Shown here: piece after piece, positions 60 through 47,748 of the stretch
How positions within the stretch are numbered: the first letter of the stretch is position 1
Layout of the letters: each line of letters starts with the position of its first letter
Source of the DNA: an uncultured Bacilli bacterium
Lineage (GTDB): Bacteria; Bacillota_I; Bacilli_A; RF39; UBA660
Direction: 5' to 3'
Length of the DNA stretch: 51,730 nt
Assembly: GCA_947585915.1 (NCBI GenBank)
Contig: CANPXJ010000001.1
Location: forward strand, 1-51,730
Made by a program: the position numbers and the translations under genes
The notes under the pieces: model-generated
Seen by the model: the letters and a program-made list of their open reading frames with translations, nothing else
What the model was told of the DNA's origin: nothing
Database searches by the model: none

Positions 60-110
60 ACTGCAAAACTCAAGATAATAGTATTTTATAACACTCGACA
101 AAGAAAATCA

Positions 111-127
111 ATAAATTTATTGCTTTT
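111..127. repeat. Left copy of 17-bp direct repeat (target-site duplication) ATAAATTTATTGCTTTT
   Basis: Identical 17-mer recurs at 1599-1615. Each copy directly abuts one terminal inverted repeat of the IS. Confidence 0.75.
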
Positions 128-1662: not shown

Positions 1663-2166
1663 TTATTTTTTAATAATACAAATTTCATCATTGTATGAAA
1701 CCGCCGGAGTAGCAGTGCTAAAAAGTTTCATACTGCCATCAGTTTCGTTTGGCTCCGTACTACAATTACCACCTGCTTTTTTTCCCCATGCTCTATATGA
1801 TTTATTTTCGATAACATATTTATATTTTGGTAAACCATCCTGAATTTCTACTTCTATTTCATAGTTATATCCTTCTTTATTTTCAATATCAACGTGTTTA
1901 TTTTCAGCTTCACTTTCAAAAACAATCGTTTGATTTGCGGTATTACCTACAGCTTTTTCTGCATACTTTGTTTGAGCAGCTTTTAAATATGCTCTTACTT
2001 CTGTTTCAAAAGCATTCTTTCGAGCATTTTCCATTATTCTTAAAACACTAGGCATGGCTAGTAGTATTAATATTGATAATATTACTATTACAGCCAGTAA
2101 TTCTATTAATGTAAAACCTTTTTTTTTCTTTAATTTTTTTATAACGTTTTTTATTTTCTTTAGCAT
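1663..2166 (-). CDS. Type IV pilin / ComGC-like pseudopilin precursor
   Basis: N-terminus MLKKIKNVIKKLKKKKG/FTLIELLAVIVILSILILLAMP is a class III (prepilin) signal: Gly-1, Phe+1, Glu+5, then a hydrophobic helix. RBS AGGTGA lies 5 nt before ATG 2166. The ORF-track GTG at 2175 lies inside the RBS. Confidence 0.8.
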   Translation of the reverse strand: MLKKIKNVIKKLKKKKGFTLIELLAVIVILSILILLAMPSVLRIMENARKNAFETEVRAYLKAAQTKYAEKAVGNTANQTIVFESEAENKHVDIENKEGYNYEIEVEIQDGLPKYKYVIENKSYRAWGKKAGGNCSTEPNETDGSMKLFSTATPAVSYNDEICIIKK

Positions 2167-2187
2167 TTCTATCACCTATATATAAAT

Positions 2188-2216
2188 AGTATACTTTTAA
2201 CCCCCCCCCAAGTCAA
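2188..2216 (-). promoter_or_regulatory. Sigma-A type promoter of the pilin gene with a G9 tract in the spacer
   Basis: Minus strand reads TTGACT(2216-2211)-T-GGGGGGGGG-TTAAAAG-TATACT(2193-2188). The spacer is exactly 17 nt. Confidence 0.7.
2201..2209 (-). repeat. Homopolymeric G9 (C9 on plus strand) tract
   Basis: Read directly. It is one of only two G/C runs longer than 5 nt that I could find in the window. Confidence 0.95.
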
Positions 2217-2280
2217 TTTTTTTAATAAATTTATTTATATTTTTACATATATTTTACACAAACATTTTATTTTTATACAA

Positions 2281-2304
2281 AAAAAATAAGAGTATTTACT
2301 CTCA
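2281..2304 (-). terminator. Terminator after the ylbE-like gene
   Basis: Minus strand GAGAGT-AAAT-ACTCTT hairpin followed by a T run. Confidence 0.5.
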
Positions 2305-2328
2305 TTTTCAAATAAGTTTATAAATAAT

Positions 2329-2550
2329 TTATTTTAACACATTTAAAACACTACTAATTAAATCAATATTTTCAATTGCATTATTTATTTTATCAGTAGT
2401 ATGTAATTTATATAAGTCTTTCATGGCTTCTTCGAACTTTTTATAATTAGTGGCTGACCGATTTAATTCTTTATACCAATGAGAATTTAATTTTAAATAT
2501 TCATACATTTTGGGATTTTCTTTTAATTTCATTTGAACATATTTCTGCAT
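2329..2550 (-). CDS. YlbE-like small protein
   Basis: 73 aa, MQKYVQMKLKENPKMYEYLKLNSHWYKELNR. Sits next to a YlbD-like gene, as in Bacillus ylbD-ylbE. Confidence 0.5.
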   Translation of the reverse strand: MQKYVQMKLKENPKMYEYLKLNSHWYKELNRSATNYKKFEEAMKDLYKLHTTDKINNAIENIDLISSVLNVLK

Positions 2551-8233: not shown

Positions 8234-9514
8234 TTATTTCAAAGTATATACTTTTATTTGATTATCAGGTGTAATACATTGGTAAATTCCATTCCCGTTT
8301 TCTTCTATTGTTTTAAACGTTTTACAAGGAATAAATACTTCATTTTTAGTTACATTGTATATTCCATCTGCATAACTATCGTCATAAAGAACACTAATCC
8401 TTCTAAGGATATCACCAGTATTCGATAGATATTCACTTCCTATATAATCATAAGTAGCGCAAGGAATATCTATCCTATTTTTAGTTACATTGTATATTCC
8501 ATCTGCATAACTATCGTCAGAAGGAACACTAATCCTTCTAAGGATATCGCCAGTATTCGATAGATATTCACTTCCTATATAATCATAAGTAGTGCAAGGA
8601 ATATCTATCTTATTTTTAGTTACATTGTATATTCCATTTACATAACTATCGTCAGAAGGAACACTAATCCTTCTAAGGATATCACCAGTATGCGATGGAA
8701 ATTCACTTCCTATATAATCATAAGTAGCACAAGGAATATCTATCCTATTTTTAGTTACATTATATATGCCCTTTACATAACCATCGTCAGAAGGAACACC
8801 AATTCTTCTAAGGATATCACCAGTCAGTGATCTAAACTCTTCTCCAACGTACGAATACGTACTATATAAATCAGTAGTATTAAATTCTTTTTTGTTTTCT
8901 TGTAAGTTTTGATTAGGTATTTCTGTGGGCTCTGGAGTTGGAATTTGTGTTGGCTCAATAGATGAGACTGGTTCTTCAGATGGAGCTATGGATGGATCTG
9001 TATTTAAAGCAATATCTAAATTTTCTTCATCATCTTTAATAATTTTTCTTTCAAGCTTTAATGTACCATAATCTAATAAATCTATTTCGCCATTTTTATA
9101 AAATACTACTATAAAAGATTTATAGTCTTCACCAATATAGTAACCAAACTTTTCTAATTTATTATAACCAATTTTTATAATTTCTTCTCTTGTAAATGGA
9201 TCTATAAATCCATATTCTAACTCATTATTATCATTATATATTCCTACTTTAAGTAAAGCTATTTTGCCAATCTGTGATAACACATCATCTACGAAATCAT
9301 ATTTTTCGTTTATCTTATATTCAGCATCTGATTTTAAACTATTTATAATCTCACCTGCCGATATATTATTTGTTTGGTCTAAACTGATAATATCATAAGT
9401 CATACTGTTATATGAATCACATCCACTTGCAGCTACTGATATTGTTGCTATTGCACTTAATGCAATAAGCTTTTTACGATACTTTTTTATTTTTTCTAAT
9501 TTTTTATTTTTCAT
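8234..9514 (-). CDS. Lipoprotein with WG-like repeats and four 45-aa tandem repeats
   Basis: Signal peptide with lipobox AASG/C. C-terminal repeats have the form YDYIGSE..S.TGDILRRISVPSDDSY..GIYNVTKN.IDIPC.T. Confidence 0.75.
   Translation of the reverse strand: MKNKKLEKIKKYRKKLIALSAIATISVAASGCDSYNSMTYDIISLDQTNNISAGEIINSLKSDAEYKINEKYDFVDDVLSQIGKIALLKVGIYNDNNELEYGFIDPFTREEIIKIGYNKLEKFGYYIGEDYKSFIVVFYKNGEIDLLDYGTLKLERKIIKDDEENLDIALNTDPSIAPSEEPVSSIEPTQIPTPEPTEIPNQNLQENKKEFNTTDLYSTYSYVGEEFRSLTGDILRRIGVPSDDGYVKGIYNVTKNRIDIPCATYDYIGSEFPSHTGDILRRISVPSDDSYVNGIYNVTKNKIDIPCTTYDYIGSEYLSNTGDILRRISVPSDDSYADGIYNVTKNRIDIPCATYDYIGSEYLSNTGDILRRISVLYDDSYADGIYNVTKNEVFIPCKTFKTIEENGNGIYQCITPDNQIKVYTLK
8318..8857 (-). 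repeat. Four tandem 135-bp coding repeats
   Basis: Units at 8723-8857, 8588-8722, 8453-8587 and 8318-8452. Units 2-4 are nearly identical at nucleotide level. Confidence 0.9.
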
Positions 9515-22348: not shown

Positions 22349-24544
22349 TTAAATCTTTCTTTCTTTTTTTAATCTTAAAGCATTTATAATAACCATCAAG
22401 CTACTAAACATCATAGCACACGAAGCCCACATTGGTCCAATTACAATATTAAAAGGTCTAAATAAACCAGTAGCTATTGGAATCATTAAAACATTATAAA
22501 AGAAGGCCCAAAATAAATTTTGTTTAATAATTTTAATAGTCTTTTTACTAATTTCCATTAAATTTAATATCTTTTTTAAATCATTATCTAAAAGAATAAC
22601 ATCAGCACATGAACTAGCTATATCTGTTCCACTGGCTAAAGATATGCCAATATCAGCTTTAGTTAAAGATGGAGCATCATTAATGCCATCGCCAATCATG
22701 ACTACTCTTTTTCCTTTTTTTTGCAACTCAGTTACGATTTTAGTTTTATCTTGTGGTAAGACGGAGGCATATACTTGGTTTATTCCTACTTCTTCAGCAA
22801 TGGCTAAAGCTGTTTTTTCATTATCACCAGATAGTAATATAGTTTCGATATTTTGCTTTTTTAATTTTTTTATTACGTCGCTTGCCTCTTTTCTTGGGGT
22901 ATCTAAAACCCCTATTAAAGCTAGGATATTATTATTTTCTACCAAGTAGATAACACTAGCATTTAAATCTAATAATTTATCTTCATCTTTTAAATAAGGA
23001 TTATCCAACTTTAATTTATTTATTAATTTCCTACTACCAACATAATAGGTTTTTTTGCTTATCTTTCCTTCAATTCCTAAACCTTCTATATTTTTAAAAG
23101 AATTAACAGGTATTAATTTTAATTTATGTTCTTGCGTATAATTTTTAAAAGCTGTCGCAATCGGATGAGTTGCTAAATTTTCTAAACTAGCTGCAATTTC
23201 AATTAGTTTATCCTGGGAATATTTACTATAATTAAAGATATGAGCTATTTTTAAATTGCCATAAGTTAAAGTTCCCGTTTTATCAAAAATTAAGGTATCA
23301 ACATGACCCATTTGTTCTAAAATAGTAGTTGATTTTACTAATATTTGTTTACTAGCACAAGTACCAATACTAACTACGGTAGCTAAAGGGGTGGCAAGTC
23401 CTAAAGCACATGGACAAGATACTAAAAGAACACTAACAAAACTCGTAAAAGAAAGAGAAAAATCTTTAGTAATTATTAAATTAATCAAAAAAGTAACAAG
23501 AGCAACAATAATAACTCCAGGGACAAATAAAGAACATATTCTATCAGCCATTTTTTCATATTTAGTCTTAGTTCCTGTAGCTTGAGCAACTAAATTAACG
23601 ATTTGCGAAATAGTCGAATTTTTTCCAATATTTAAAGCTTCATATTCAATATATCCATCGATATTTAAAGAACCAGCTAAAACTTTATCTTTGCTTTTCT
23701 TTTTAACAGGTCGCGCCTCGCCAGTGATAAAAGCTTCATCTATATGGCATTTACCTTTCGTAATTACACCATCTACAGCAATTTTCATTCCAGGTTTACA
23801 TATTAAAATATCTTTCTTTTTAACTTCATCAATTGTTATTTGCTTTTCCCCTTTTAAAAGAGCGTACTCTGGAGTAATTTGCACCAATTCACTTATAGCT
23901 TGTTTTGATTTTTCTTTTCCTTTATTATCTAAAAATCTCCCTAGCTTAATAAAATAGATAATAATACAACATGATTCAAAATAAAGATTATCAACTAACA
24001 TATAGTTGCCTTTTAAAATTAAAATAAAATGATAAACTGAATAAGTAAAGCAAGTAAGAACTCCTAAAGTTACTAAAGTATCCATATTAAAGCTTAAATG
24101 TTTTAAATTTTTAAAACCACTTTTTAAAATATCTTTACCATAAAGAAAAAAAGGACAAGTTAAAATAAGTAAACATACTGTATAATTAATAGGATTTTTA
24201 TGCATATCTAAAAAAGAAATCATAGGCATTTTTAACATACTCGCCATAGCAATATATAAAACCAAGGTAGCTAAAAAACTATAAATAATTAAATTTATTT
24301 TTGGTGTTTTATTTTTTTCGTTTTTTTTTAAGTTAAATTCGCCTAAACTTTCGAAGCCGGCTTCCGAAACGAAGTTTTCTAAATCGCTTATTTTTAAAGA
24401 ATCTTCATATTCAATTGTAGCTTGAGCCATAACTAAATTAACACTAGCCTTAATTACACCATCTTGTTTATTTAAATATTTTTCTAAACTATTAGCACAA
24501 CCACTACAACTCATTCCTTTAATACTTAATATAACTTTTTTCAT
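22349..24544 (-). CDS. copA: Copper-translocating P-type ATPase
   Basis: N-terminal HMA GMSCSGC, CPC in a TM helix, DKTGTLT, GDGINDAP. Confidence 0.9.
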   Translation of the reverse strand: MKKVILSIKGMSCSGCANSLEKYLNKQDGVIKASVNLVMAQATIEYEDSLKISDLENFVSEAGFESLGEFNLKKNEKNKTPKINLIIYSFLATLVLYIAMASMLKMPMISFLDMHKNPINYTVCLLILTCPFFLYGKDILKSGFKNLKHLSFNMDTLVTLGVLTCFTYSVYHFILILKGNYMLVDNLYFESCCIIIYFIKLGRFLDNKGKEKSKQAISELVQITPEYALLKGEKQITIDEVKKKDILICKPGMKIAVDGVITKGKCHIDEAFITGEARPVKKKSKDKVLAGSLNIDGYIEYEALNIGKNSTISQIVNLVAQATGTKTKYEKMADRICSLFVPGVIIVALVTFLINLIITKDFSLSFTSFVSVLLVSCPCALGLATPLATVVSIGTCASKQILVKSTTILEQMGHVDTLIFDKTGTLTYGNLKIAHIFNYSKYSQDKLIEIAASLENLATHPIATAFKNYTQEHKLKLIPVNSFKNIEGLGIEGKISKKTYYVGSRKLINKLKLDNPYLKDEDKLLDLNASVIYLVENNNILALIGVLDTPRKEASDVIKKLKKQNIETILLSGDNEKTALAIAEEVGINQVYASVLPQDKTKIVTELQKKGKRVVMIGDGINDAPSLTKADIGISLASGTDIASSCADVILLDNDLKKILNLMEISKKTIKIIKQNLFWAFFYNVLMIPIATGLFRPFNIVIGPMWASCAMMFSSLMVIINALRLKKERKI

Positions 24545-24848: not shown

Positions 24849-24878
24849 ATTATAGTACCCCCTAGGGGTATTAGTCAA
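24849..24878 (-). promoter_or_regulatory. csoR-copA promoter with a CsoR operator in the spacer
   Basis: Minus strand TTGACT(24878-24873)-18 nt-TATAAT(24854-24849). The spacer carries the GC-rich pseudo-palindrome TACCCC-N3-GGGGTA (24856-24870). Confidence 0.75.
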
Positions 24879-27205: not shown

Positions 27206-29986
27206 TTATTTAACCACGATATTAACTATTTTATTTGGAACAACTATCACTTTAATTATTTCTTTTCCATCTATATGTTTTTTAGCTTTTTCATCTTGTA
27301 AAGCTAAAGTTTCTAGTTTTTCTTTTGGAGTATCTTTTTCCACTGCTATAGTACTTCGTAATTTGCCATTAACAGAAATAGCAATATTAATTTCTTTATC
27401 AACCATTTTTGCTTCATCATATTTAGGCCAAACCTCAAAACATAAAGGAGAATAACCAATTTCTTCATTTAATTCTTCTGTAATATGCGGAGCTATTGGA
27501 TTAAGTAATGTTAAAAGCAAATGATAATCATCTTTAGTTATACTTTCCTCATCATCATAAGCATTAGCTAAAATCATTAAAGCTGCTACGGCTGTATTAT
27601 AACCCATATTTTCGATATCATCTTCTACTTTTTTAATAGTCTTATTAATAATTCCTTCTAATTTTTGCGAATAACCTTTTTCATTATTCACTTTATCTTT
27701 TAAACGAATAATTTTATCAATAAAGCGTTTACAACCTTTAAGTGAGTCTGTGCTCCAAGGTGCATCTTGTTCATAGTTACCCATAAACATTTCATATAAA
27801 CGAAGAGTATCAGCACCATATTCTTTTACAATATCATCGGGATTGATAACATTTCCTTTGGATTTACTCATTTTTTCATTATTAGAACCTAAAACCATAC
27901 CATGAGAAACACGCGTCCATATCATTTCTTTTTGCGGAACTAAACCGATGTTGTATAAAAACTGAACCCAAAAACGTGCATATAATAGGTGTCGAGCCGT
28001 ATGCTCCATTCCCCCATTATACCAATCAACTCTATGCCAATATTTCATAGCATCCATTGAAGCAAATTCTTTATTATTATGAGGGTCCATAAATCTCAAG
28101 AAATACCAAGAAGAACCAGCCCAGTTAGGCATTGTATCAGTTTCTCTTTTAGCTGGGCCACCACATTTTGGACATTTACAATTAACCCATTCTTCAATTT
28201 TAGCAAGTGGACTTTCACCTGTATCAGTTGGTTCATATTCTGCTACATCAGGAAGAAGCAATGGTAATTCTTCTTCCTTCATTGGTTGCCATCCACATTT
28301 TTCGCAATAAATCATCGGAATTGGTTCGCCCCAGAATCTTTGACGAGAGAATATCCAATCACGCATTTTGTAATTAGTTTGTTTTTGACCACATTTATTT
28401 TTTTCTAACCAAGAAATCATTTTGTTAATGGCTTCTTCTTTATTTAAACCATTTAAATCAGCCGAGTTAATATGAATTCCATCTCCTACCATAGCTCCTG
28501 GGCCTTTAGCATATTCATAAGTTTTGCTATGTAACTCGTCTTTAATTTCTTTTAAGATAACATCTTCTTTTACCCACTCTACTTTTGTATCTACTTTCTT
28601 GTTATCTTTTAGTTTAAAGAAAAAACCAGTACTTTCAATATTAAAATATTTATTATCTTCTTGATTATGATGATTAATTTTTGGTAATTCATAAACTAAC
28701 TCTAAATTAGTATAGCCAGTTTCTTCTTCAATTTCTCGTTTAGCACATGCAAGTGGTGTTTCTCCCTCATTTATAGTGCCTCCAACAAATAATCTTTCTT
28801 CCCCATTTTTGATTGTTAAATATTTATCTTCTTTTTCATCATATACAATAGCTACAATCGAATTTTTCTTTTCTTCATTCTCATGAGGAGTACCGGTAAC
28901 TTCTTCTAATACTTGAACAATAGGAATGTTAAATTTTTGAGCAAATTCATAATCGCGTTCATCGTGAGCTGGAACAGCCATAATAGCACCTGTTCCATAA
29001 CTAGCTAAAACATAATCACTAATATAAATTGGAATTTTTTCTTTATTAACTGGATTAATAGCATAGGCACCCGTAAATACCCCAGTTTTTTCTTTATTAA
29101 GTTCAGTTCTTTCTAAATCATTTTTTAAAGCACAAGCTTTTTTATATTCTAAAACCTCACTCTTTTTATCAGGTGTCGTAATTATATCAACATATTTATG
29201 TTCTGGCGCTAAAACACAATAAGTTGCTCCATATAAAGTATCGCATCTAGTTGTAAAAACTGTGAAAGTTAAATCATGCTTATCTATTTTAAAGTCAACA
29301 CAAGCTCCCGTTGATTTACCAATCCAATTAATTTGCCCTAATTTTACTTTTTCAGCAAAGTTCGTATCTTTTAGACCAGTAAGTAAATCCTCAGCATAAT
29401 CCGACATTCTTAGCATCCATTGTGATTTTTCTTTTTGAATTACGGGATGGCCACAACGTTCACAAACTCCTCCTGCTGAATCTTCATTAGATAAAACTGT
29501 TTTACAATTTTCACACCAATTAACCGGTACTTTTTCTTTGTAAGCCATACCATGTTTATAAAATTGTAAAAACTGCCATTGCGTCCATCTATAATAATCT
29601 GGATCAGTTGTCGAAAATTCTCGGCTCCAATCAAAAGAAAATCCTATTGATTGCATTTGTTTTTTAAAAGTAGCAATATTTTTTTTAACTGCTTCTTTAG
29701 GATGAATATGATTTTTTATGGCAAATTGCTCGGCTGGGGCACCAAAAGCATCCCATCCCATAGGATATAAAACATTATAACCTTTCATTCTTTTTAAACG
29801 AGCCAAAGAATCTAGAGCTGTATAACTTCTAACGTGCCCTACATGTAAACCTGCTCCTGAGGGATAAGGAAATTCAACTAAAATATAATATGGTTCCTTT
29901 TTATCCCCTGTTACAGCCTCAAAAACTTTATTTTCTTCCCAATATTTTTGCCATTTAGCCTCTATTTTTTTGTGTCCTTTTTCCAT
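27206..29986 (-). CDS. leuS: Leucine--tRNA ligase carrying an inserted Nudix domain
   Basis: HVGH and KMSKS motifs, CP1 editing motif TTRCDTLYGATY, zinc CxxC pairs. At 926 aa it is longer than typical bacterial LeuRS because of the insertion at residues ~362-495. Confidence 0.95.
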   Translation of the reverse strand: MEKGHKKIEAKWQKYWEENKVFEAVTGDKKEPYYILVEFPYPSGAGLHVGHVRSYTALDSLARLKRMKGYNVLYPMGWDAFGAPAEQFAIKNHIHPKEAVKKNIATFKKQMQSIGFSFDWSREFSTTDPDYYRWTQWQFLQFYKHGMAYKEKVPVNWCENCKTVLSNEDSAGGVCERCGHPVIQKEKSQWMLRMSDYAEDLLTGLKDTNFAEKVKLGQINWIGKSTGACVDFKIDKHDLTFTVFTTRCDTLYGATYCVLAPEHKYVDIITTPDKKSEVLEYKKACALKNDLERTELNKEKTGVFTGAYAINPVNKEKIPIYISDYVLASYGTGAIMAVPAHDERDYEFAQKFNIPIVQVLEEVTGTPHENEEKKNSIVAIVYDEKEDKYLTIKNGEERLFVGGTINEGETPLACAKREIEEETGYTNLELVYELPKINHHNQEDNKYFNIESTGFFFKLKDNKKVDTKVEWVKEDVILKEIKDELHSKTYEYAKGPGAMVGDGIHINSADLNGLNKEEAINKMISWLEKNKCGQKQTNYKMRDWIFSRQRFWGEPIPMIYCEKCGWQPMKEEELPLLLPDVAEYEPTDTGESPLAKIEEWVNCKCPKCGGPAKRETDTMPNWAGSSWYFLRFMDPHNNKEFASMDAMKYWHRVDWYNGGMEHTARHLLYARFWVQFLYNIGLVPQKEMIWTRVSHGMVLGSNNEKMSKSKGNVINPDDIVKEYGADTLRLYEMFMGNYEQDAPWSTDSLKGCKRFIDKIIRLKDKVNNEKGYSQKLEGIINKTIKKVEDDIENMGYNTAVAALMILANAYDDEESITKDDYHLLLTLLNPIAPHITEELNEEIGYSPLCFEVWPKYDEAKMVDKEINIAISVNGKLRSTIAVEKDTPKEKLETLALQDEKAKKHIDGKEIIKVIVVPNKIVNIVVK
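28502..28903 (-). other. Nudix hydrolase domain inserted in-frame in LeuRS
   Basis: Perfect Nudix box G-x5-E-x7-REUxEExGU: G403 TINEG E TPLACAK REIEEETGY (nt 28712-28780). Flanked by beta-strand-like NSIVAIVYDEKEDKYLTIKNGEERLFVGG. Lies between the conserved LeuRS blocks AVPAHDERDYEFAQKFNIPIVQVL and GDGIHINSADLNGL. Confidence 0.85.
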
Positions 29987-30351: not shown

Positions 30352-30545
30352 AAAAAACGTCCTTAATAAGGGCGAAAAATTTCGTGGTACCACCTTAATT
30401 CCTAGTATAATAACTAGCTTATAATCCATAAGGGAGATGACCCATCACATCCAAAAGCAAGTTCATATATCATTATTGCTAGTTTCCATCAACCACTAGC
30501 TTTCTTTAAAATAAATAATATACTACTACTCTTTTTTCTTCGCTT
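30352..30545 (-). promoter_or_regulatory. T-box riboswitch, Leu specifier (CUU)
   Basis: Minus strand elements: AGAGUA GA-motif; distal stem I CUAGUGGUUGAUGGAAACUAG; specifier loop ..AUGAA-CUU-G; T-box sequence AAUUAAGGUGGUACCACG (GGTGGTACCACG at 30383-30394); terminator CGCCCUUAUUAAGGACG plus U7. Confidence 0.85.
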
Positions 30546-30551
30546 GCTAAT

Positions 30552-38605: not shown

Positions 38606-39454
38606 TTAATCACCACTACTTTTACTTTCTTTTAATAATTTGATTTTTTCAGCATTATTAAGTATATTTAATTGATATTTTGCAATAACCCTTAATATAT
38701 CAAATCTTTCTTCTTTACTTTTCCCTTCTTTAATTAATTCTGCATTATGTGACTCAAGATTTGATAATACTGTTAATTCATTAATGGAAGCATAGTCCCT
38801 AATATTAGAGTTTTTTGCTAAATCAAGATTAAGTTCTCTCCATGTTTTTGCTGTCGTATAAAATAATACAACATTTAAAATATCAGCTTCTTCAGCATAT
38901 TTTATCCATTCTCTATTTTTAAAATAATCATTATCTGGTAATATATATCTTTTTATAGCATCCGTATGAATTAAATAATTATTCTTTGTAAGTATTCTTT
39001 TTACATCCCATTCTCTATTTTGATTTTCTAACTCTTTTAATCTTTCAAATTCTTTTATTAAATATAATTTAAATACTGGACTTATAGCAGAAGCAAATTC
39101 AAAAGCAATATCTTTATGTGCGTAAGTTCCACCATATTTTCCACGCTTAGAATAAATACCAATAGCATTAGTTTTTGCACACCATTCAGTTACACTAAGT
39201 GTAAAAGTATGAAGACTAGCATTTTTTCTAAACCCGTCGAATTCGACGGAATTAAAATTTGGATTATAAATTGATTCCCAAGTACCTAAAAACTCTAAAG
39301 TTATCCGATTCCTTAACCAATTACGTATTATATCATCAGATTTTGAATTTCCTTCTTTATATTTACCAAAATCAGAAATACAAATATAATCATTATTGTC
39401 TAGCTTTGTAACATTAACTTTTATGTTTTGAACTTCTAATGTTTTATTAGACAT
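38606..39454 (-). CDS. KilA-N domain DNA-binding protein
   Basis: YICISDFGKYKEG...NWLRNR...GGTYAHKDIAFEFASAISPVFKLYLIKEF is the KilA-N pattern. Has its own RBS AAGGAGG and a downstream hairpin. Confidence 0.65.
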   Translation of the reverse strand: MSNKTLEVQNIKVNVTKLDNNDYICISDFGKYKEGNSKSDDIIRNWLRNRITLEFLGTWESIYNPNFNSVEFDGFRKNASLHTFTLSVTEWCAKTNAIGIYSKRGKYGGTYAHKDIAFEFASAISPVFKLYLIKEFERLKELENQNREWDVKRILTKNNYLIHTDAIKRYILPDNDYFKNREWIKYAEEADILNVVLFYTTAKTWRELNLDLAKNSNIRDYASINELTVLSNLESHNAELIKEGKSKEERFDILRVIAKYQLNILNNAEKIKLLKESKSSGD

Positions 39455-40881: not shown

Positions 40882-41871
40882 CTATTGATTAGTCTGTTTA
40901 TCATTTCCAATTTCTTTTAACTTTTTATCACATTCAAGAAATTTATCAAAATCGAAAACAAATAATGTATCTTGTTTTTTTCTGAATTTGTCATATTCTT
41001 TATATGCAAGCTCTTGAGCTACTTTATGAGAAATTTTTCCAGAGTTATGTAATATTTCCTGACCATTAAATTGTAAAAAAACATTAAGCTTTTCTGCCAA
41101 ATCATTCATTGTCATTGCATTATGATTTTCTGCTTGTAATTCAGCATAATCTAAATACATTGTAACAATTCTATTTAAGTTTTTTAATTCTTTTTCCGTT
41201 AAATAATTTTTAGCAATATCTACATCATATCTATAAATTGGACCATTTGGTGATTCACCCCAATTTTATTTCGGCAACAGTATTGCCAGTTACAGCATAA
41301 CGAAGTTTGTTTTGAACTGATTTAAAAAATTTTTTAGTAACATCCGAATCTTTCTCATAACCAATACTACAAGATGAATAAATGTCAGTATTTTTTGGTA
41401 AAATCTTCTTTCACTAGAGCGTATATTTTTAATCCTTTCTAAAAGTCTTTCGAAGTAATCTTCACCAAAAATATAATCAGGATTTTTTAATCTTTCATCA
41501 TCCACTACAAATCCAGTAATTAAATACTCTTTTAATACTTTTGTTGCCCAAATTCTAAAATGAGTTGCTTTTTTAGAATTTACTCGATAGCCAACCGCAA
41601 TAATCATATCTAGATTATATATCTTTACTGGTTTTTTAGAAGTATCAACGTCGGTTTTTCCGACGGTGTTATCCACACTAAGTTCACCACTATTTAAAAT
41701 ATTATTAATATGTTCTGTTATAGTACTTCTAGAAACTCCAAATAATTCCGCAATCAAATTTTGGGTTAACCAAATCTCATTATTAATTAAAAGTACCCTT
41801 ATCTTAACATCATTATTCTCATCTTTATATATTAAAAAATCATGATTTGTAATTTGTAATTTATTTTTCAT
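40882..41871 (-). pseudogene. rhuM: RhuM-family protein gene with at least two frameshifts
   Basis: The N-terminal part (MKNKLQITNHDFLIY...RSSERRFYQKI) loses frame near 41389-41391. The middle segment TDIYSSCSIGYEKDSDVTKKFFKSVQNKLRYAVTGNTVAEI is in another frame and breaks again near 41258-41272. The C-terminal part NWGESPNG...IAKNYLTEKELKNLNRIVTMYLDYAELQAE continues into ORF 40882-41160. Confidence 0.65.
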
Positions 41872-41928
41872 TATGCTCACCTCTTTTTCTATGCAAACCA
41901 AATTTTTAAAATTTTTTTATTTATTTTT

Positions 41929-44685: not shown

Positions 44686-45825
44686 TTAATTATGTAATTT
44701 TTTAAAAGCAAATGTTAAACCTAAAGCTGAAATTACAACAGCAATAATTGAATAAATAATTGCATCAGCTGTATTTGGGTTTTTCTCTTCTGCTTTTGCT
44801 TCAGTTGAACTAGTTTCCTCTGTTTTAGGAGTAACTAATTTACCATCTGTACCTAATACCATACCTTCAGGAATATATTGGTCTTCAAGTCCACCAATAA
44901 ATGTTCCACCACTAATGGCTGTTGTAGTTTTACCAGATTTTTCTCCATATCCTTCAGCTGGGGCAGTAACACCAATATCTTTTAAGCTTAAAACATCATA
45001 AGCATTACGTTCAGTAGCATTAGTTTTTAAAACAGCATTACCTGAAATAGAAACAGTAGCTTCTTGTTCAACTTTACCTAAATCGTAAATAGCTATAGCA
45101 CTACCTTTACCATTTTCGCTATTAAATGTTCCACCAGTGATATTTAACTTAACAGAGTTATCATCACCTTGAGTATAAGATCCAGCTAAAACATATAAAG
45201 CATCAGCAAAGAAAACTCTTCCAGACCAAGAATAATTATCTTTTGGCTCATCTAATTCTCCAGTAGTAGCATTAATTGTTCCACCAGAAATATTTACATC
45301 ACCCATTCTTAAAGCAATACCACCATTAATAGTACCACCAGAAATATTTAATTTACCTTGAGCTGGCATATAAATAGCTGGTCCTTTTTGAGTAGTTAAT
45401 GTACCATTAGAAATAGTAAAATTACCTTTACCTGTTGTATTATTACTAGATAAAGCAGAACGTACAGAATCAATAATTCCACCTTGAACATTTACAGTAG
45501 CATCTTGTGTTGCAACAATACCATAATCCTCTGATTTAATTGTACCATTACTTCCACTATCAGTAATAGTCAAAGTATGTGCACCACTTATTTGAATAAA
45601 ATGATCTACTCCAGTAAATTTTAAAGTATGACCTTTTAAATCGATAGTAACATCATCTGTAATTGTTAATATTTCATTAATAGTTACTTCATTGCTATTA
45701 ACGGTATATACTTTGTTATCTCCTGTAATGTCAGTGCTTAAATCAGTAAGCGTTTTAGCTGATACTGTTGGTATCATTGCTACTCCAGCAACTATACTAG
45801 CTAACGCTAATAATTTTCCTTTCAT
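44686..45825 (-). CDS. Secreted parallel beta-helix protein with a C-terminal NPNTA sorting signal (putative SrtB substrate/adhesin)
   Basis: Signal peptide MKGKLLALASIVAGVAMIPTVSA. Repeated (I/V)(S/T)GGT(I/F)N turns. C-terminus NPNTAD plus hydrophobic helix plus KKLHN. RBS AAGGAG before ATG 45825. The ORF-track ATG at 45852 lies in the -10 box. Confidence 0.7.
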   Translation of the reverse strand: MKGKLLALASIVAGVAMIPTVSAKTLTDLSTDITGDNKVYTVNSNEVTINEILTITDDVTIDLKGHTLKFTGVDHFIQISGAHTLTITDSGSNGTIKSEDYGIVATQDATVNVQGGIIDSVRSALSSNNTTGKGNFTISNGTLTTQKGPAIYMPAQGKLNISGGTINGGIALRMGDVNISGGTINATTGELDEPKDNYSWSGRVFFADALYVLAGSYTQGDDNSVKLNITGGTFNSENGKGSAIAIYDLGKVEQEATVSISGNAVLKTNATERNAYDVLSLKDIGVTAPAEGYGEKSGKTTTAISGGTFIGGLEDQYIPEGMVLGTDGKLVTPKTEETSSTEAKAEEKNPNTADAIIYSIIAVVISALGLTFAFKKLHN

Positions 45826-45850: not shown

Positions 45851-45880
45851 ATTATAACCCCCCCCCATAATGAAAGTCAA
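45851..45880 (-). promoter_or_regulatory. Promoter of the beta-helix protein gene with a G9 tract in the spacer
   Basis: Minus strand TTGACT(45880-45875)-TTCATTAT-GGGGGGGGG-T-TATAAT(45856-45851). The spacer is 18 nt. Confidence 0.7.
45858..45866 (-). repeat. Homopolymeric G9 (C9 on plus strand) tract
   Basis: Read directly. Confidence 0.95.
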
Positions 45881-46023: not shown

Positions 46024-47748
46024 ATGGCGCAAAAGAAGACAACAAATCAAAATAAAACTAAAAATAATTCTCACAATAAACCCCAAAAAAGTGATTTAAG
46101 AAGTAAACAATATTTTGATGAATCCACTATTCAAATTCCTAAATTAAAAAGTGACATAAAAACTGAATATAAAAAAATTAACGAAAATACCAAAAGAAAA
46201 AATACTAGCAATGTAAAAAAAACAAATAATTCTAAAGCAATTCCTACCTCTTCACAAAAAAAGAGTAATAATTCTAATAAAAATAAAAGTACTAAAAGTG
46301 TAAATAAGAGTGAGCCCTCAAGAAAGAAAACTGAAACTAAAAATTTAGTTAATAATAATTCTAAAAATAATAAAAAAGATCTCTCATCTAAAATAAAATC
46401 CCAAAAAATTGATGAGGAAATAGATAAATTTAATAAGGAAAAAAATCAAATAGATTTAAAACAGGAAAAAAATATTGACGATAAAGGTTCAAATACCAAA
46501 ACTAATATCAAAGATATTTCCAATTATGAATATCAAAAAAACGATAATTATAACTATAAAGAAAAAGCTAAAGAAATTGATGAAGAAATAGATAATTTTA
46601 ATAAAGAAAAAGAACAACAAAACGATTTAAAACAAAAGAAAAATTTTAACGATAAAAAGTTACAATCAAAAGTTATTAGCGAAGATACTACTAATTATAA
46701 AAGCAAAAAAAACGATAATTATATAAATAAGGAAAAAGAAAAGACAATCGATGAAGAAATAGATAATTTTAATAAGGAAAAGAAAAAAAATGATTCAAAG
46801 ACAAAAACTAATATCGAAGATACTACTAAATTTGATACAACATTAATTGATAATCAAAAATTAAATATAAATGATTTAAAAAGAGAACTAGAAATAATAT
46901 ATGGTGAAAAAAAGATAGATGAGCCAAAAACTAAAATTATCAAGAAAAAAAGATTACGTCCTTGGGTATTTTATCTTCTTATAATTATATTTTCTTCTAT
47001 TTTAATCTTTTCTGGTTATCAAATATATAAATGGCATAAAGATAATCAAAACATTAAAGAAATCAAAAAAGATATCGATTCAGATATAAAACCAAAAGAA
47101 AACAATGAACAAGGAGAACTTGTAAATCCTCCTGATGATAAAAATAGTGATTATTGGTATTATATAAATCTACCTTTTTATGAAGTTGATTTTAATGAAT
47201 TAAAGAAAAAAAATAGTGATACTGTAGCTTTCATTCATATGAATAATACTAATATCAATTATCCTGTAGTTCAAACATCTAATAATGATTACTATTTAAC
47301 TCATGCCTTTGATAAAAGCAAAAATAATGCGGGATGGGTATTTATGGATTATCGTAATACCTTGTCTCCTTTAAGTGATAATGTTGTAATTTATGGCCAT
47401 GGTCGTGTTAATAAAACAGTCTTTGGTTCTCTAAAAGATGCTTTATCTAAATCATGGCAAAAAAATAAAGATAATTTTGTTATTTGGCTATCAACACCAA
47501 ATGAAAATTTGCTTTATCAAATATTTTCAATTTACACAGTTCAAAGTGAAAGTTATTATATTTCTACTGACTTTGCTACAAATACCGATAAGCAAAATTG
47601 GCTTAATACTATGAAGCAAAGAAATACTGCTAGTATTGATACTCCAGTTGATGTCAATGATAATATAATTACATTATCAACATGTCAAAATAATAATGGT
47701 GGTAGAATTGTTGTTCAAGCCAAATTAATAAAACGCCAAACAAGATAA
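46024..47748 (+). CDS. srtB: Class B sortase with a long basic N-terminal extension
   Basis: Catalytic domain NINYPVVQTSNNDYYLTHAFDKSKNNAGWVFMDYRN ... VIYGHGR ... TLSTCQNN ... GRIVVQAKL (His/Cys/Arg). Preceded by a TM helix and about 310 aa of Lys/Asn-rich sequence. Confidence 0.85.
   Translation: MAQKKTTNQNKTKNNSHNKPQKSDLRSKQYFDESTIQIPKLKSDIKTEYKKINENTKRKNTSNVKKTNNSKAIPTSSQKKSNNSNKNKSTKSVNKSEPSRKKTETKNLVNNNSKNNKKDLSSKIKSQKIDEEIDKFNKEKNQIDLKQEKNIDDKGSNTKTNIKDISNYEYQKNDNYNYKEKAKEIDEEIDNFNKEKEQQNDLKQKKNFNDKKLQSKVISEDTTNYKSKKNDNYINKEKEKTIDEEIDNFNKEKKKNDSKTKTNIEDTTKFDTTLIDNQKLNINDLKRELEIIYGEKKIDEPKTKIIKKKRLRPWVFYLLIIIFSSILIFSGYQIYKWHKDNQNIKEIKKDIDSDIKPKENNEQGELVNPPDDKNSDYWYYINLPFYEVDFNELKKKNSDTVAFIHMNNTNINYPVVQTSNNDYYLTHAFDKSKNNAGWVFMDYRNTLSPLSDNVVIYGHGRVNKTVFGSLKDALSKSWQKNKDNFVIWLSTPNENLLYQIFSIYTVQSESYYISTDFATNTDKQNWLNTMKQRNTASIDTPVDVNDNIITLSTCQNNNGGRIVVQAKLIKRQTR
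46408..46836 (+). repeat. Tandem coding repeats (168, 171 and a partial 90 nt) in the sortase N-terminal extension
   Basis: Units begin with ATTGATGA(G/A)GAAATAGAT at 46408 and 46576, and ATCGATGAAGAAATAGAT at 46747 (IDEEID(K/N)FNKEK...). Confidence 0.8.

Follow-up and report, generated by a model that had tools for sequence, protein, structure and literature searches.

A nine-nucleotide poly-G tract in the promoter spacer of a type IV pilin-like gene, a candidate contingency promoter in an uncultured low-GC Bacilli lineage

Nine consecutive G residues separate the -35 and -10 boxes of a type IV pilin-like gene in the 51,730-nt stretch of DNA from an uncultured Bacilli bacterium that was analysed here as a whole (hereafter, the window). 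The underlying observations are solid: the tract itself, its location in a conserved promoter, the recurrence of similar tracts in the lineage and, at a twin promoter, a G9/G10 polymorphism within the species. As judged from the sequences compared, the pilin promoter belongs to a small group of promoters found in an uncultured low-GC Bacilli lineage, each of which would drive the expression of a secreted or surface protein. With moderate confidence, we propose that the pilin tract acts as a slipped-strand contingency promoter of the porA/tp0126/vlp kind, which would currently have its optimal spacing.

The pilin-like gene and its promoter

The initial annotation described this promoter as TTGACT-T-G9-TTAAAAG-TATACT with a 17-nt spacer, followed by the ribosome-binding site AGGTGA and the pilin ATG about 20 nt downstream. 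Both parts of this description proved correct. Indeed, direct reading of the minus strand from 2216 to 2188 gives TTGACT-T-GGGGGGGGG-TTAAAAG-TATACT, and the consensus scan scored the promoter at 10/12 with a 17-nt spacer. A homopolymer of at least about 8 nt is thus found between a recognisable -35 box and a recognisable -10 box, and the pilin ATG (2166-2164, minus strand) is located 21 nt past the -10 box and 34 nt downstream of the G9 tract. The elements of the locus are as follows.

1663..2166, minus strand: 167-aa type IV pilin-like gene (PF07963, TIGR02532, profile match, AlphaFold model)
2172..2177, minus strand: Shine-Dalgarno sequence AGGTGA, with the ATG 5 nt downstream (direct reading)
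2188..2193, minus strand: -10 hexamer TATACT of the pilin promoter, 17 nt past the -35 (sequence, consensus scan, pattern scan)
2194-2200, minus strand: TTAAAAG between the G9 tract and the -10 (sequence)
2201..2209, minus strand: G9 homopolymer in the -35/-10 spacer of the pilin promoter (sequence, homopolymer census)
2210, minus strand: T between the -35 and the G9 tract (sequence)
2211..2216, minus strand: -35 hexamer TTGACT of the pilin promoter (sequence, consensus scan, pattern scan)
2275..2309, minus strand: intrinsic terminator after ylbE, with a 12-bp stem, a 4-nt loop and a U-run (-11.1 kcal/mol, z = -2.7)
83..111, minus strand: second pilin-type promoter TTGATT-17-TAAAAT, without G tract (comparison with contigs L008-L010)

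The gap between ylbE and the pilin gene is 162 nt long with the G9 allele versus 75 nt otherwise, and the terminator hairpin falls inside this gap. Since the terminator stands between ylbE and the pilin promoter, the pilin gene would constitute its own transcription unit. Its neighbours are housekeeping genes, namely ylbD, ylbE, rpmF, fpg, polA and others.

The product of 1663-2166 appears to be a genuine prepilin-type protein. Its description as a type IV pilin-like surface protein was borne out by matches to PF07963 (35.1 bits for a cut-off of 21.2, E 8e-9) and TIGR02532 (32.7 bits for a cut-off of 16.3), and by a profile of 24 pilin relatives, which matches PilE1 of Streptococcus sanguinis (8pfb, E 9e-10). 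The N-terminus has the organization of a class III signal peptide: a 16-residue basic leader ending in G, the F-x-x-x-E motif (G|FTLIE) and then a long hydrophobic helix, with MLKKIKNVIKKLKKKKG|FTLIELLAVIVILSIL as the cleavage region. In the AlphaFold model (mean pLDDT 75), a helix spanning residues 20-72 is followed by a five-stranded beta-sheet head, and two cysteines, Cys135 and Cys163, are present in the C-terminal part. A Foldseek search of the PDB with this model gave no significant match, the best one being a T2SS pseudopilin (E 0.38). A scan of species-representative genomes with the pilin recovered three distant relatives only, and none of the window ORFs scanned encodes pilus machinery, either a prepilin peptidase or an assembly ATPase or platform protein.

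Comparison with related sequences indicates that the pilin promoter assignment is good and that the promoter is real. The TTGACTT sequence is retained upstream of orthologous pilins in five other contigs (L005, L012, L018, L023 and L026). In those from related species (L005, L012 and L018), the ylbD-ylbE-pilin order is retained as well, and the pilin promoters consist of TTGACTT, a T-rich spacer of 16-18 nt (T6-T9) and TATATAAT, at an equal distance from the start codon. More generally, the distance from the TATA(A/C)T -10 box to the pilin start is constant across alleles and species, whereas the spacer sequence varies. Hexamers that are conserved around a replaced spacer are what a promoter leaves as its footprint. 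In conspecific contigs whose YlbE protein is identical, the pilin exists as other alleles, 169 and 152 aa long, preceded by a similar T-rich promoter. Together with the 167-aa form of the window, there are thus three pilin alleles behind an identical YlbE (window 1663-2346 versus L023, L024 and L026-L029). Their first 70 residues or so are conserved, their C-terminal halves are unrelated, and the promoter spacer differs with each allele.

The pilin cassette, at about 1500-2346 (some 850 nt), is 100 % identical in 5/5 assemblies, whereas the next 650 nt contain 15 SNPs between haplotypes and the flanks are about 2 % different. An invariant cassette between differing flanks points to its recent spread. 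Downstream of the pilin gene, four broken ORFs occupy positions 202-1498 of the plus strand. A repeat is suggested by the fact that a number of assemblies terminate in this region. A Pfam search with these four ORFs detected no match and no transposase, and the term "IS-like" that we apply to them is our own reading only. Beyond them lies the second pilin-type promoter (111-83, minus strand), which in contigs L008-L010 drives a paralogous 153-aa pilin, P0002 (cf. L008 1-513); the window sequence diverges from these contigs directly after this promoter, at 74-1. The flanks of the two pilin promoters are homologous (AATAAATTTATT ... TACTATT(T)AT ... AGG(A/T)GATAG), and over their first 220 nt the two pilin genes share 90 % identity. 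For these reasons, the G9 promoter looks like a diverged duplicate of an ordinary pilin promoter, the spacer of which would have been rebuilt.

Several other features of the window deserve a mention in their own right. The editing domain of the leucyl-tRNA synthetase (926 aa, 27206-29986, minus strand) is directly followed by an inserted NUDIX domain (PF00293, residues 376-475, E 1.7e-12), as is that of a related species (L042 3525-6344), and the synthetase gene of the window is preceded by a T-box leader (30365-30548). A 426-aa ORF (8234-9514, minus strand), whose sole family match is weak and cloacin-immunity-like, harbours at 8342-8824 a 135-nt unit repeated 3.6 times with 94 % identity. 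KilA-N-domain and RhuM-family genes (38606-39454 and 41290-41901, minus strand) are found among the housekeeping genes and may be mobile-element remnants.

G tracts in the window and in related sequences

The G+C content of the window is 26.6 %. In a census of its G/C runs, the length of 5 nt is represented 11 times, lengths of 6-8 nt are absent and 9 nt occurs exactly twice, at 2201-2209 and 45858-45866, each time as C on the plus strand. This agrees with the initial annotation, which had reported only two G/C homopolymers longer than 5 nt, each of 9 nt and both on one strand. An independent-nucleotide (iid) model predicts about 0.0024 C9 runs for each window; with two runs of 9 nt and none of 6-8 nt, a chance occurrence of the G9 tracts was rejected. 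A G9 run would hardly be expected in a genome of 26.6 % GC without selection or some special origin. Sites of the form TTGAC[AT]-N16-19-TAnAnT are also few: there are only 8 in the window versus 4.3 +/- 1.9 in block shuffles, and 8/8 are located on the minus strand, which is the gene-rich one. Two of these eight sites contain the two G9 tracts. A promoter-like site at 24849-24878 (minus strand), upstream of the gene (22349-24544) for an HMA-domain P-type ATPase of the copper type, holds in its spacer the palindrome TACCCCTAGGGGGTA. This palindrome looks like an operator of the CsoR/CopY type, and it accounts for two C5/G5 runs of the census.

The second G9 tract belongs to a promoter that we refer to as the twin of the pilin promoter, and the features of this locus are listed below.

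44686..45825, minus strand: 379-aa surface protein (signal peptide, beta-solenoid body, C-terminal sorting signal)
45851..45856, minus strand: -10 box TATAAT (perfect) of the twin promoter (sequence, pattern scan, allele alignment)
45858..45866, minus strand: second G9 tract, 1 nt before the -10 TATAAT, in an 18-nt spacer (sequence, census)
45875..45880, minus strand: -35 box TTGACT of the twin promoter (sequence, pattern scan)
46024..47748, plus strand: class B sortase, divergent to the gene of the 379-aa protein (PF04203; TIGR03064 with E 2e-44 and 151.8 bits, just below the cut-off of 153.75)

As claimed earlier, each G9 tract is situated between a TTGACT -35 box and the -10 box of a surface-structure gene, which the sequence, the pattern scan and the family and motif matches support. 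On the other hand, the 17-nt spacing does not apply to the second tract: its spacer, TTCATTAT followed by G9 and T, places the perfect TATAAT at 18 nt.

The 379-aa protein terminates with NPNTAD, a transmembrane segment and KKLHN, and its homologues conserve (N/S)PxT(A/F/S)D. With its signal peptide, an NPxTx motif, a hydrophobic segment, a basic tail and an srtB gene nearby, it has the organization of a class B sortase substrate, and the twin gene product is accordingly predicted to lie at the surface, its sorting signal being of the sortase B type. Since the other G9 gene encodes a pilin, each of the two would specify a surface structure. The model of the 379-aa protein displays an all-beta solenoid body, with pLDDT >90 for most of residues 30-330; a Foldseek search yielded no significant PDB match for it, with weak beta-helix matches only. 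In exact-protein look-ups, a 388-aa form of this protein was matched, and neither the 379-aa form nor LepA had a match. The adjacent sortase is itself variable. It has 482 versus 574 aa between strains, at a 171-nt tandem repeat (window 46406-46807), and in a single sample (L040, ERZ27249187) its gene, beside the orthologue of the twin tract, is split by a 7-nt deletion.

The twin tract differs in length between closely related contigs. The surface protein is present in three further allelic forms on contigs whose flanks, over 4-9 kb, share 95-97 % nucleotide identity with the window; this level of identity assigns these contigs to the same species or to its boundary. The P0124 allele (84 % identity) is represented by six contigs that encode an identical protein and have flanks 97 % identical to the window. 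Their tract is G10 in two (L036 and L038) and G9 in four (L037, L039, L040 and L041), a polymorphism that needs one mutational event only and that comes from assemblies of 2-12x coverage, in which some ENA and Logan contigs may share source samples. Over 2.4 kb, the other differences between these six contigs amount to 2 SNPs and the 7-nt sortase-gene deletion, and the two G10 contigs are one SNP apart. In the P0123 allele (88 %), the tract is the 10-nt GGGGAGGGGG (G4AG5) in 6/6 contigs, in the P0126 allele (54 %) it is G9 (1/1), and the window's own allele has G9 in a second sample too (P0122, 2/2). The coexistence of G9 and G10 in P0124, together with the 10-nt G4AG5 in P0123, indicates that at least two changes between 9 and 10 have occurred at the twin tract within the species. 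Slippage, as far as these alleles can tell, does happen at such tracts in this species.

Alignment of the twin alleles showed that the segment from the -35 box to the start codon is nearly invariant, whereas the sequences upstream of the -35 are unalignable; the point at which L036 becomes homologous to the window again is precisely the -35 box. The tract was thus kept while the proteins diverged to 54 % identity, and its retention across diverged alleles in an AT-rich genome argues that selection acts on the homopolymer itself.

At the pilin promoter, no length change was found in the window and in the four other assemblies with G9 among the matches listed (ERZ27249187, -657, -228 and -419; L001-L004). 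These five assemblies span haplotypes distinguished by the 15 SNPs in the adjacent 650 nt. Since the cassette of about 850 nt is invariant throughout, the absence of any length change at the pilin tract constitutes a weak negative only. A divergent pilin copy from another study (L025, DRR848815) has a tract of equal length that is interrupted, GGGGGAGGT, i.e. G5AG2T. Its promoter reads TTGACT-T-GGGGGAGG-TTTAAAAG-TATACT, so that two substitutions leave the spacer at 17 nt. This preservation of the spacing through substitutions rather than indels would also be expected of a fixed promoter. Both interrupted tracts, G5AG2T and G4AG5, have what we take to be the appearance of locked contingency loci.

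The comparison of tract lengths in relatives therefore gave a positive answer for the twin tract (G9 in 4 contigs, G10 in 2) and a negative one for the pilin tract (G9 in 5/5 of those listed). Thus, the initial suggestion of a phase- or rheostat-variable pilin stands as regards the promoter, the surface nature of the genes and the presence in the species of a slippage-prone class of tract, but not as regards the pilin tract itself, the length of which was constant.

Similar tracts recur in the lineage. Across related low-GC sequences that total about 150 kb (a rough sum), all the G/C runs of at least 8 nt are sense-strand G runs located in promoter spacers, and every one of them precedes a gene for a secreted or surface protein; the G6 runs of these sequences lie outside promoter spacers. 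For instance, a related species with about 80 % nucleotide identity in housekeeping genes (L012) carries TTGACT-TTTCTTC-G9-TGA-TATAAT, with a 19-nt spacer and an extended -10, in front of a gene for a 505-aa protein whose N-terminus is of the SipW/camelysin type, on a weak family match. Contigs L042 and L043 carry TTGACA-TC-G8-TATTAAAT-TATAAT, with an 18-nt spacer, upstream of a homologue that shares 66 % identity with the sortase substrate and is situated at a different chromosomal place, and contig L123 has a G9 tract in a promoter spacer. In a metagenome scan, 79 loci of relatives of the twin surface protein, with a GC content of 42-62 %, had no promoter G tract, indicating that the tract belongs to the low-GC lineage and not to the gene family. 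A metagenome scan with the variable-length pattern ATTGACTTGGGG-N0-14-AAAAGTATACTAT gave 0 matches, and our literature search found no papers on such tracts in Gram-positive pilin promoters.

Possible roles of the tract

In the mechanism that we propose, the G9 run would be a hypermutable simple-sequence repeat within the sigma-A-type promoter spacer of an accessory type IV pilin gene. Slipped-strand mispairing at replication, presumably at a high rate for the pilin tract, would lead to the gain or loss of G residues and, in turn, to a shift in how far the -35 box lies from the -10 box. With transcription expected to start downstream of TATACT, G9 would provide the optimal distance of 17 nt, G8 and G10 (16 and 18 nt) would be weaker, and G7 and G11 poor. 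Changes of tract length could in this way alter pilin expression, and pilin transcription would be dialled, heritably and reversibly, in a fraction of cells. The clustering of tracts at nine G probably results from the way in which poly-G mutates and not from selection for each spacing. Indeed, since G9 is found in spacers of 17, 18 and 19 nt across loci, a mutational attractor fits better than promoter-by-promoter tuning, and the individual spacings are not obviously set ON.

Some of the same data could be explained by a fixed cis-element, either a rigid G:C spacer block that sets promoter strength or a site for a regulator of surface genes. The nine-G length would then be under purifying selection and slippage would be deleterious noise. 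We hold this explanation to be unlikely, though it deserves serious attention. It agrees with G9 being the commonest length (5/5 of the pilin tracts listed, P0122 2/2, P0124 4/6, P0126 1/1 and L012 1/1), with the conservation of the tract across strongly diverged twin alleles, with the total spacer length kept in the L025 variant and with the orientation, which is invariably G on the sense strand. However, the tract adjoins the -35 box at the pilin and L042 promoters and the -10 box at the twin locus, and spacings of 17, 18 and 19 nt are awkward for a single protein-binding geometry. Furthermore, G8, G9 and G10 all occur, and the interrupted G5AG2T and G4AG5 persist in several samples, so an uninterrupted run is dispensable. 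From mutational dynamics by themselves, one would likewise expect tract lengths to peak at nine (PMC3401435). A particular form of the fixed element, which appears improbable to us, is a G:C spacer block of fixed length that would constitute a lineage-specific module read by a dedicated factor or RNA polymerase, with slippage as a side effect; such a module would place the pilin, the sortase-anchored and the SipW-type proteins under common control. A first promoter-spacer poly-G "phasome" in walled, uncultured gut Bacilli seems likelier than this module.

It is equally improbable, in our estimation, that the tract is functionless, having hitch-hiked on a pilin cassette of recent acquisition or duplication, and is now decaying through G>A/T substitutions. 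The recent spread of the cassette, identical over about 850 nt in five assemblies with flanks about 2 % different, fits this idea, as do the succession of the cassette, the broken ORFs of an assembly-breaking repeat and a second, ordinary pilin promoter, and the decay of the L025 tract to G5AG2T. Against it, a G9 run would be unexpected at 26.6 % GC without selection or special origin, similar tracts are found at no fewer than three other unlinked promoters and only there, and the twin tract has outlasted a long allelic divergence. That the G run functions at the RNA level, either as a leader structure or in the manner of a Shine-Dalgarno sequence, with the promoter further upstream, is very unlikely. 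This possibility was suggested by the twin locus, where gene callers take as the start of the 388-aa product an ATG that lies 5 nt past the tract. But AAGGAG is found there 9 nt before a second ATG, at which the homologue P0125 starts with its G8 tract 41 nt upstream, and at the pilin locus 34 nt, including AGGTGA, separate the tract from the ATG downstream. Moreover, Rfam contains no family matching the pilin tract or the twin tract region, and a terminator precedes the pilin promoter. The geometry at 3/4 loci, the upstream terminator and the Rfam result rule out such a role. Lastly, two-colour Illumina data can yield poly-G artefacts, and the contig coverage is low (2-12x). A sequencing or assembly artefact is nevertheless scarcely conceivable, as the tract is internal with unique flanks, has substitution variants and recurs in independent samples and in two pipelines (ENA/SPAdes-style and Logan), with G9 found again in four more assemblies for the pilin locus and in one more for the second. 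These replicate assemblies effectively refute it.

Relation to known contingency promoters

The contingency promoters studied best are those of Neisseria, Haemophilus, Campylobacter, Treponema and Mycoplasma. The mechanism discussed here is thus already known; what is unusual is the host, an uncultured, walled and very AT-rich member of the gut Bacilli. If the contingency reading of the pilin tract is true, simple-sequence contingency promoters would operate beyond the classic mucosal pathogens, in an AT-rich gut commensal, where a type IV pilin as well as a sortase-anchored protein would be under their control. Surface proteins under fluctuating selection by phage, host immunity or adhesion could then also be recognised cheaply in MAGs by a sequence signature: at least 8 consecutive G between TTGACT and TATAAT in a genome of <30 % GC.

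In Mycoplasma hyorhinis, a poly-A tract in the -35/-10 spacer switches the vlp surface lipoprotein genes of a wall-less, low-GC bacterium. The vlp system resembles the present one by its promoter-spacer homopolymer, its surface proteins and its host, a low-GC bacterium from within the same broad class. It differs by the nature of the homopolymer, which is poly-A in lipoprotein genes of a wall-less organism and poly-G in the window. In Neisseria meningitidis porA, a poly-G tract between the -35 and -10 boxes controls expression, with 17 nt as the optimal spacing, as summarised in PMC7864442. The pilin promoter shares with porA a G homopolymer in the sigma-70-type spacer of a surface-protein gene. 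However, porA belongs to a Gram-negative pathogen in which both switching and its effect on transcription are experimental, whereas the pilin of an uncultured low-GC Bacilli is described from sequence only.

The tp0126 gene of Treponema pallidum also carries a poly-G tract between its -35 and -10 boxes, and transcription is best at a 17-nt spacing; in the same species, G9 predominates among the tprL tracts, alongside minorities of G7-G11 (PMC7864442). As in T. pallidum, several surface-protein promoters of a single genome carry poly-G here. Unlike in this spirochaete, for which variation within isolates was measured by fragment-length analysis and promoter activity in reporters, the G9 tract of the pilin is known from its sequence. 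Finally, in the similarly AT-rich Campylobacter jejuni, the modal poly-G length is nine, which PMC3401435 ascribes to the mutational pattern. On that account, the two AT-rich genomes are alike in that long G/C runs are rare except at surface-structure genes and have a mode of nine, but the tracts of C. jejuni act, in the work consulted, as ON/OFF switches of the reading frame, whereas those of the Bacilli are all located in promoter spacers.
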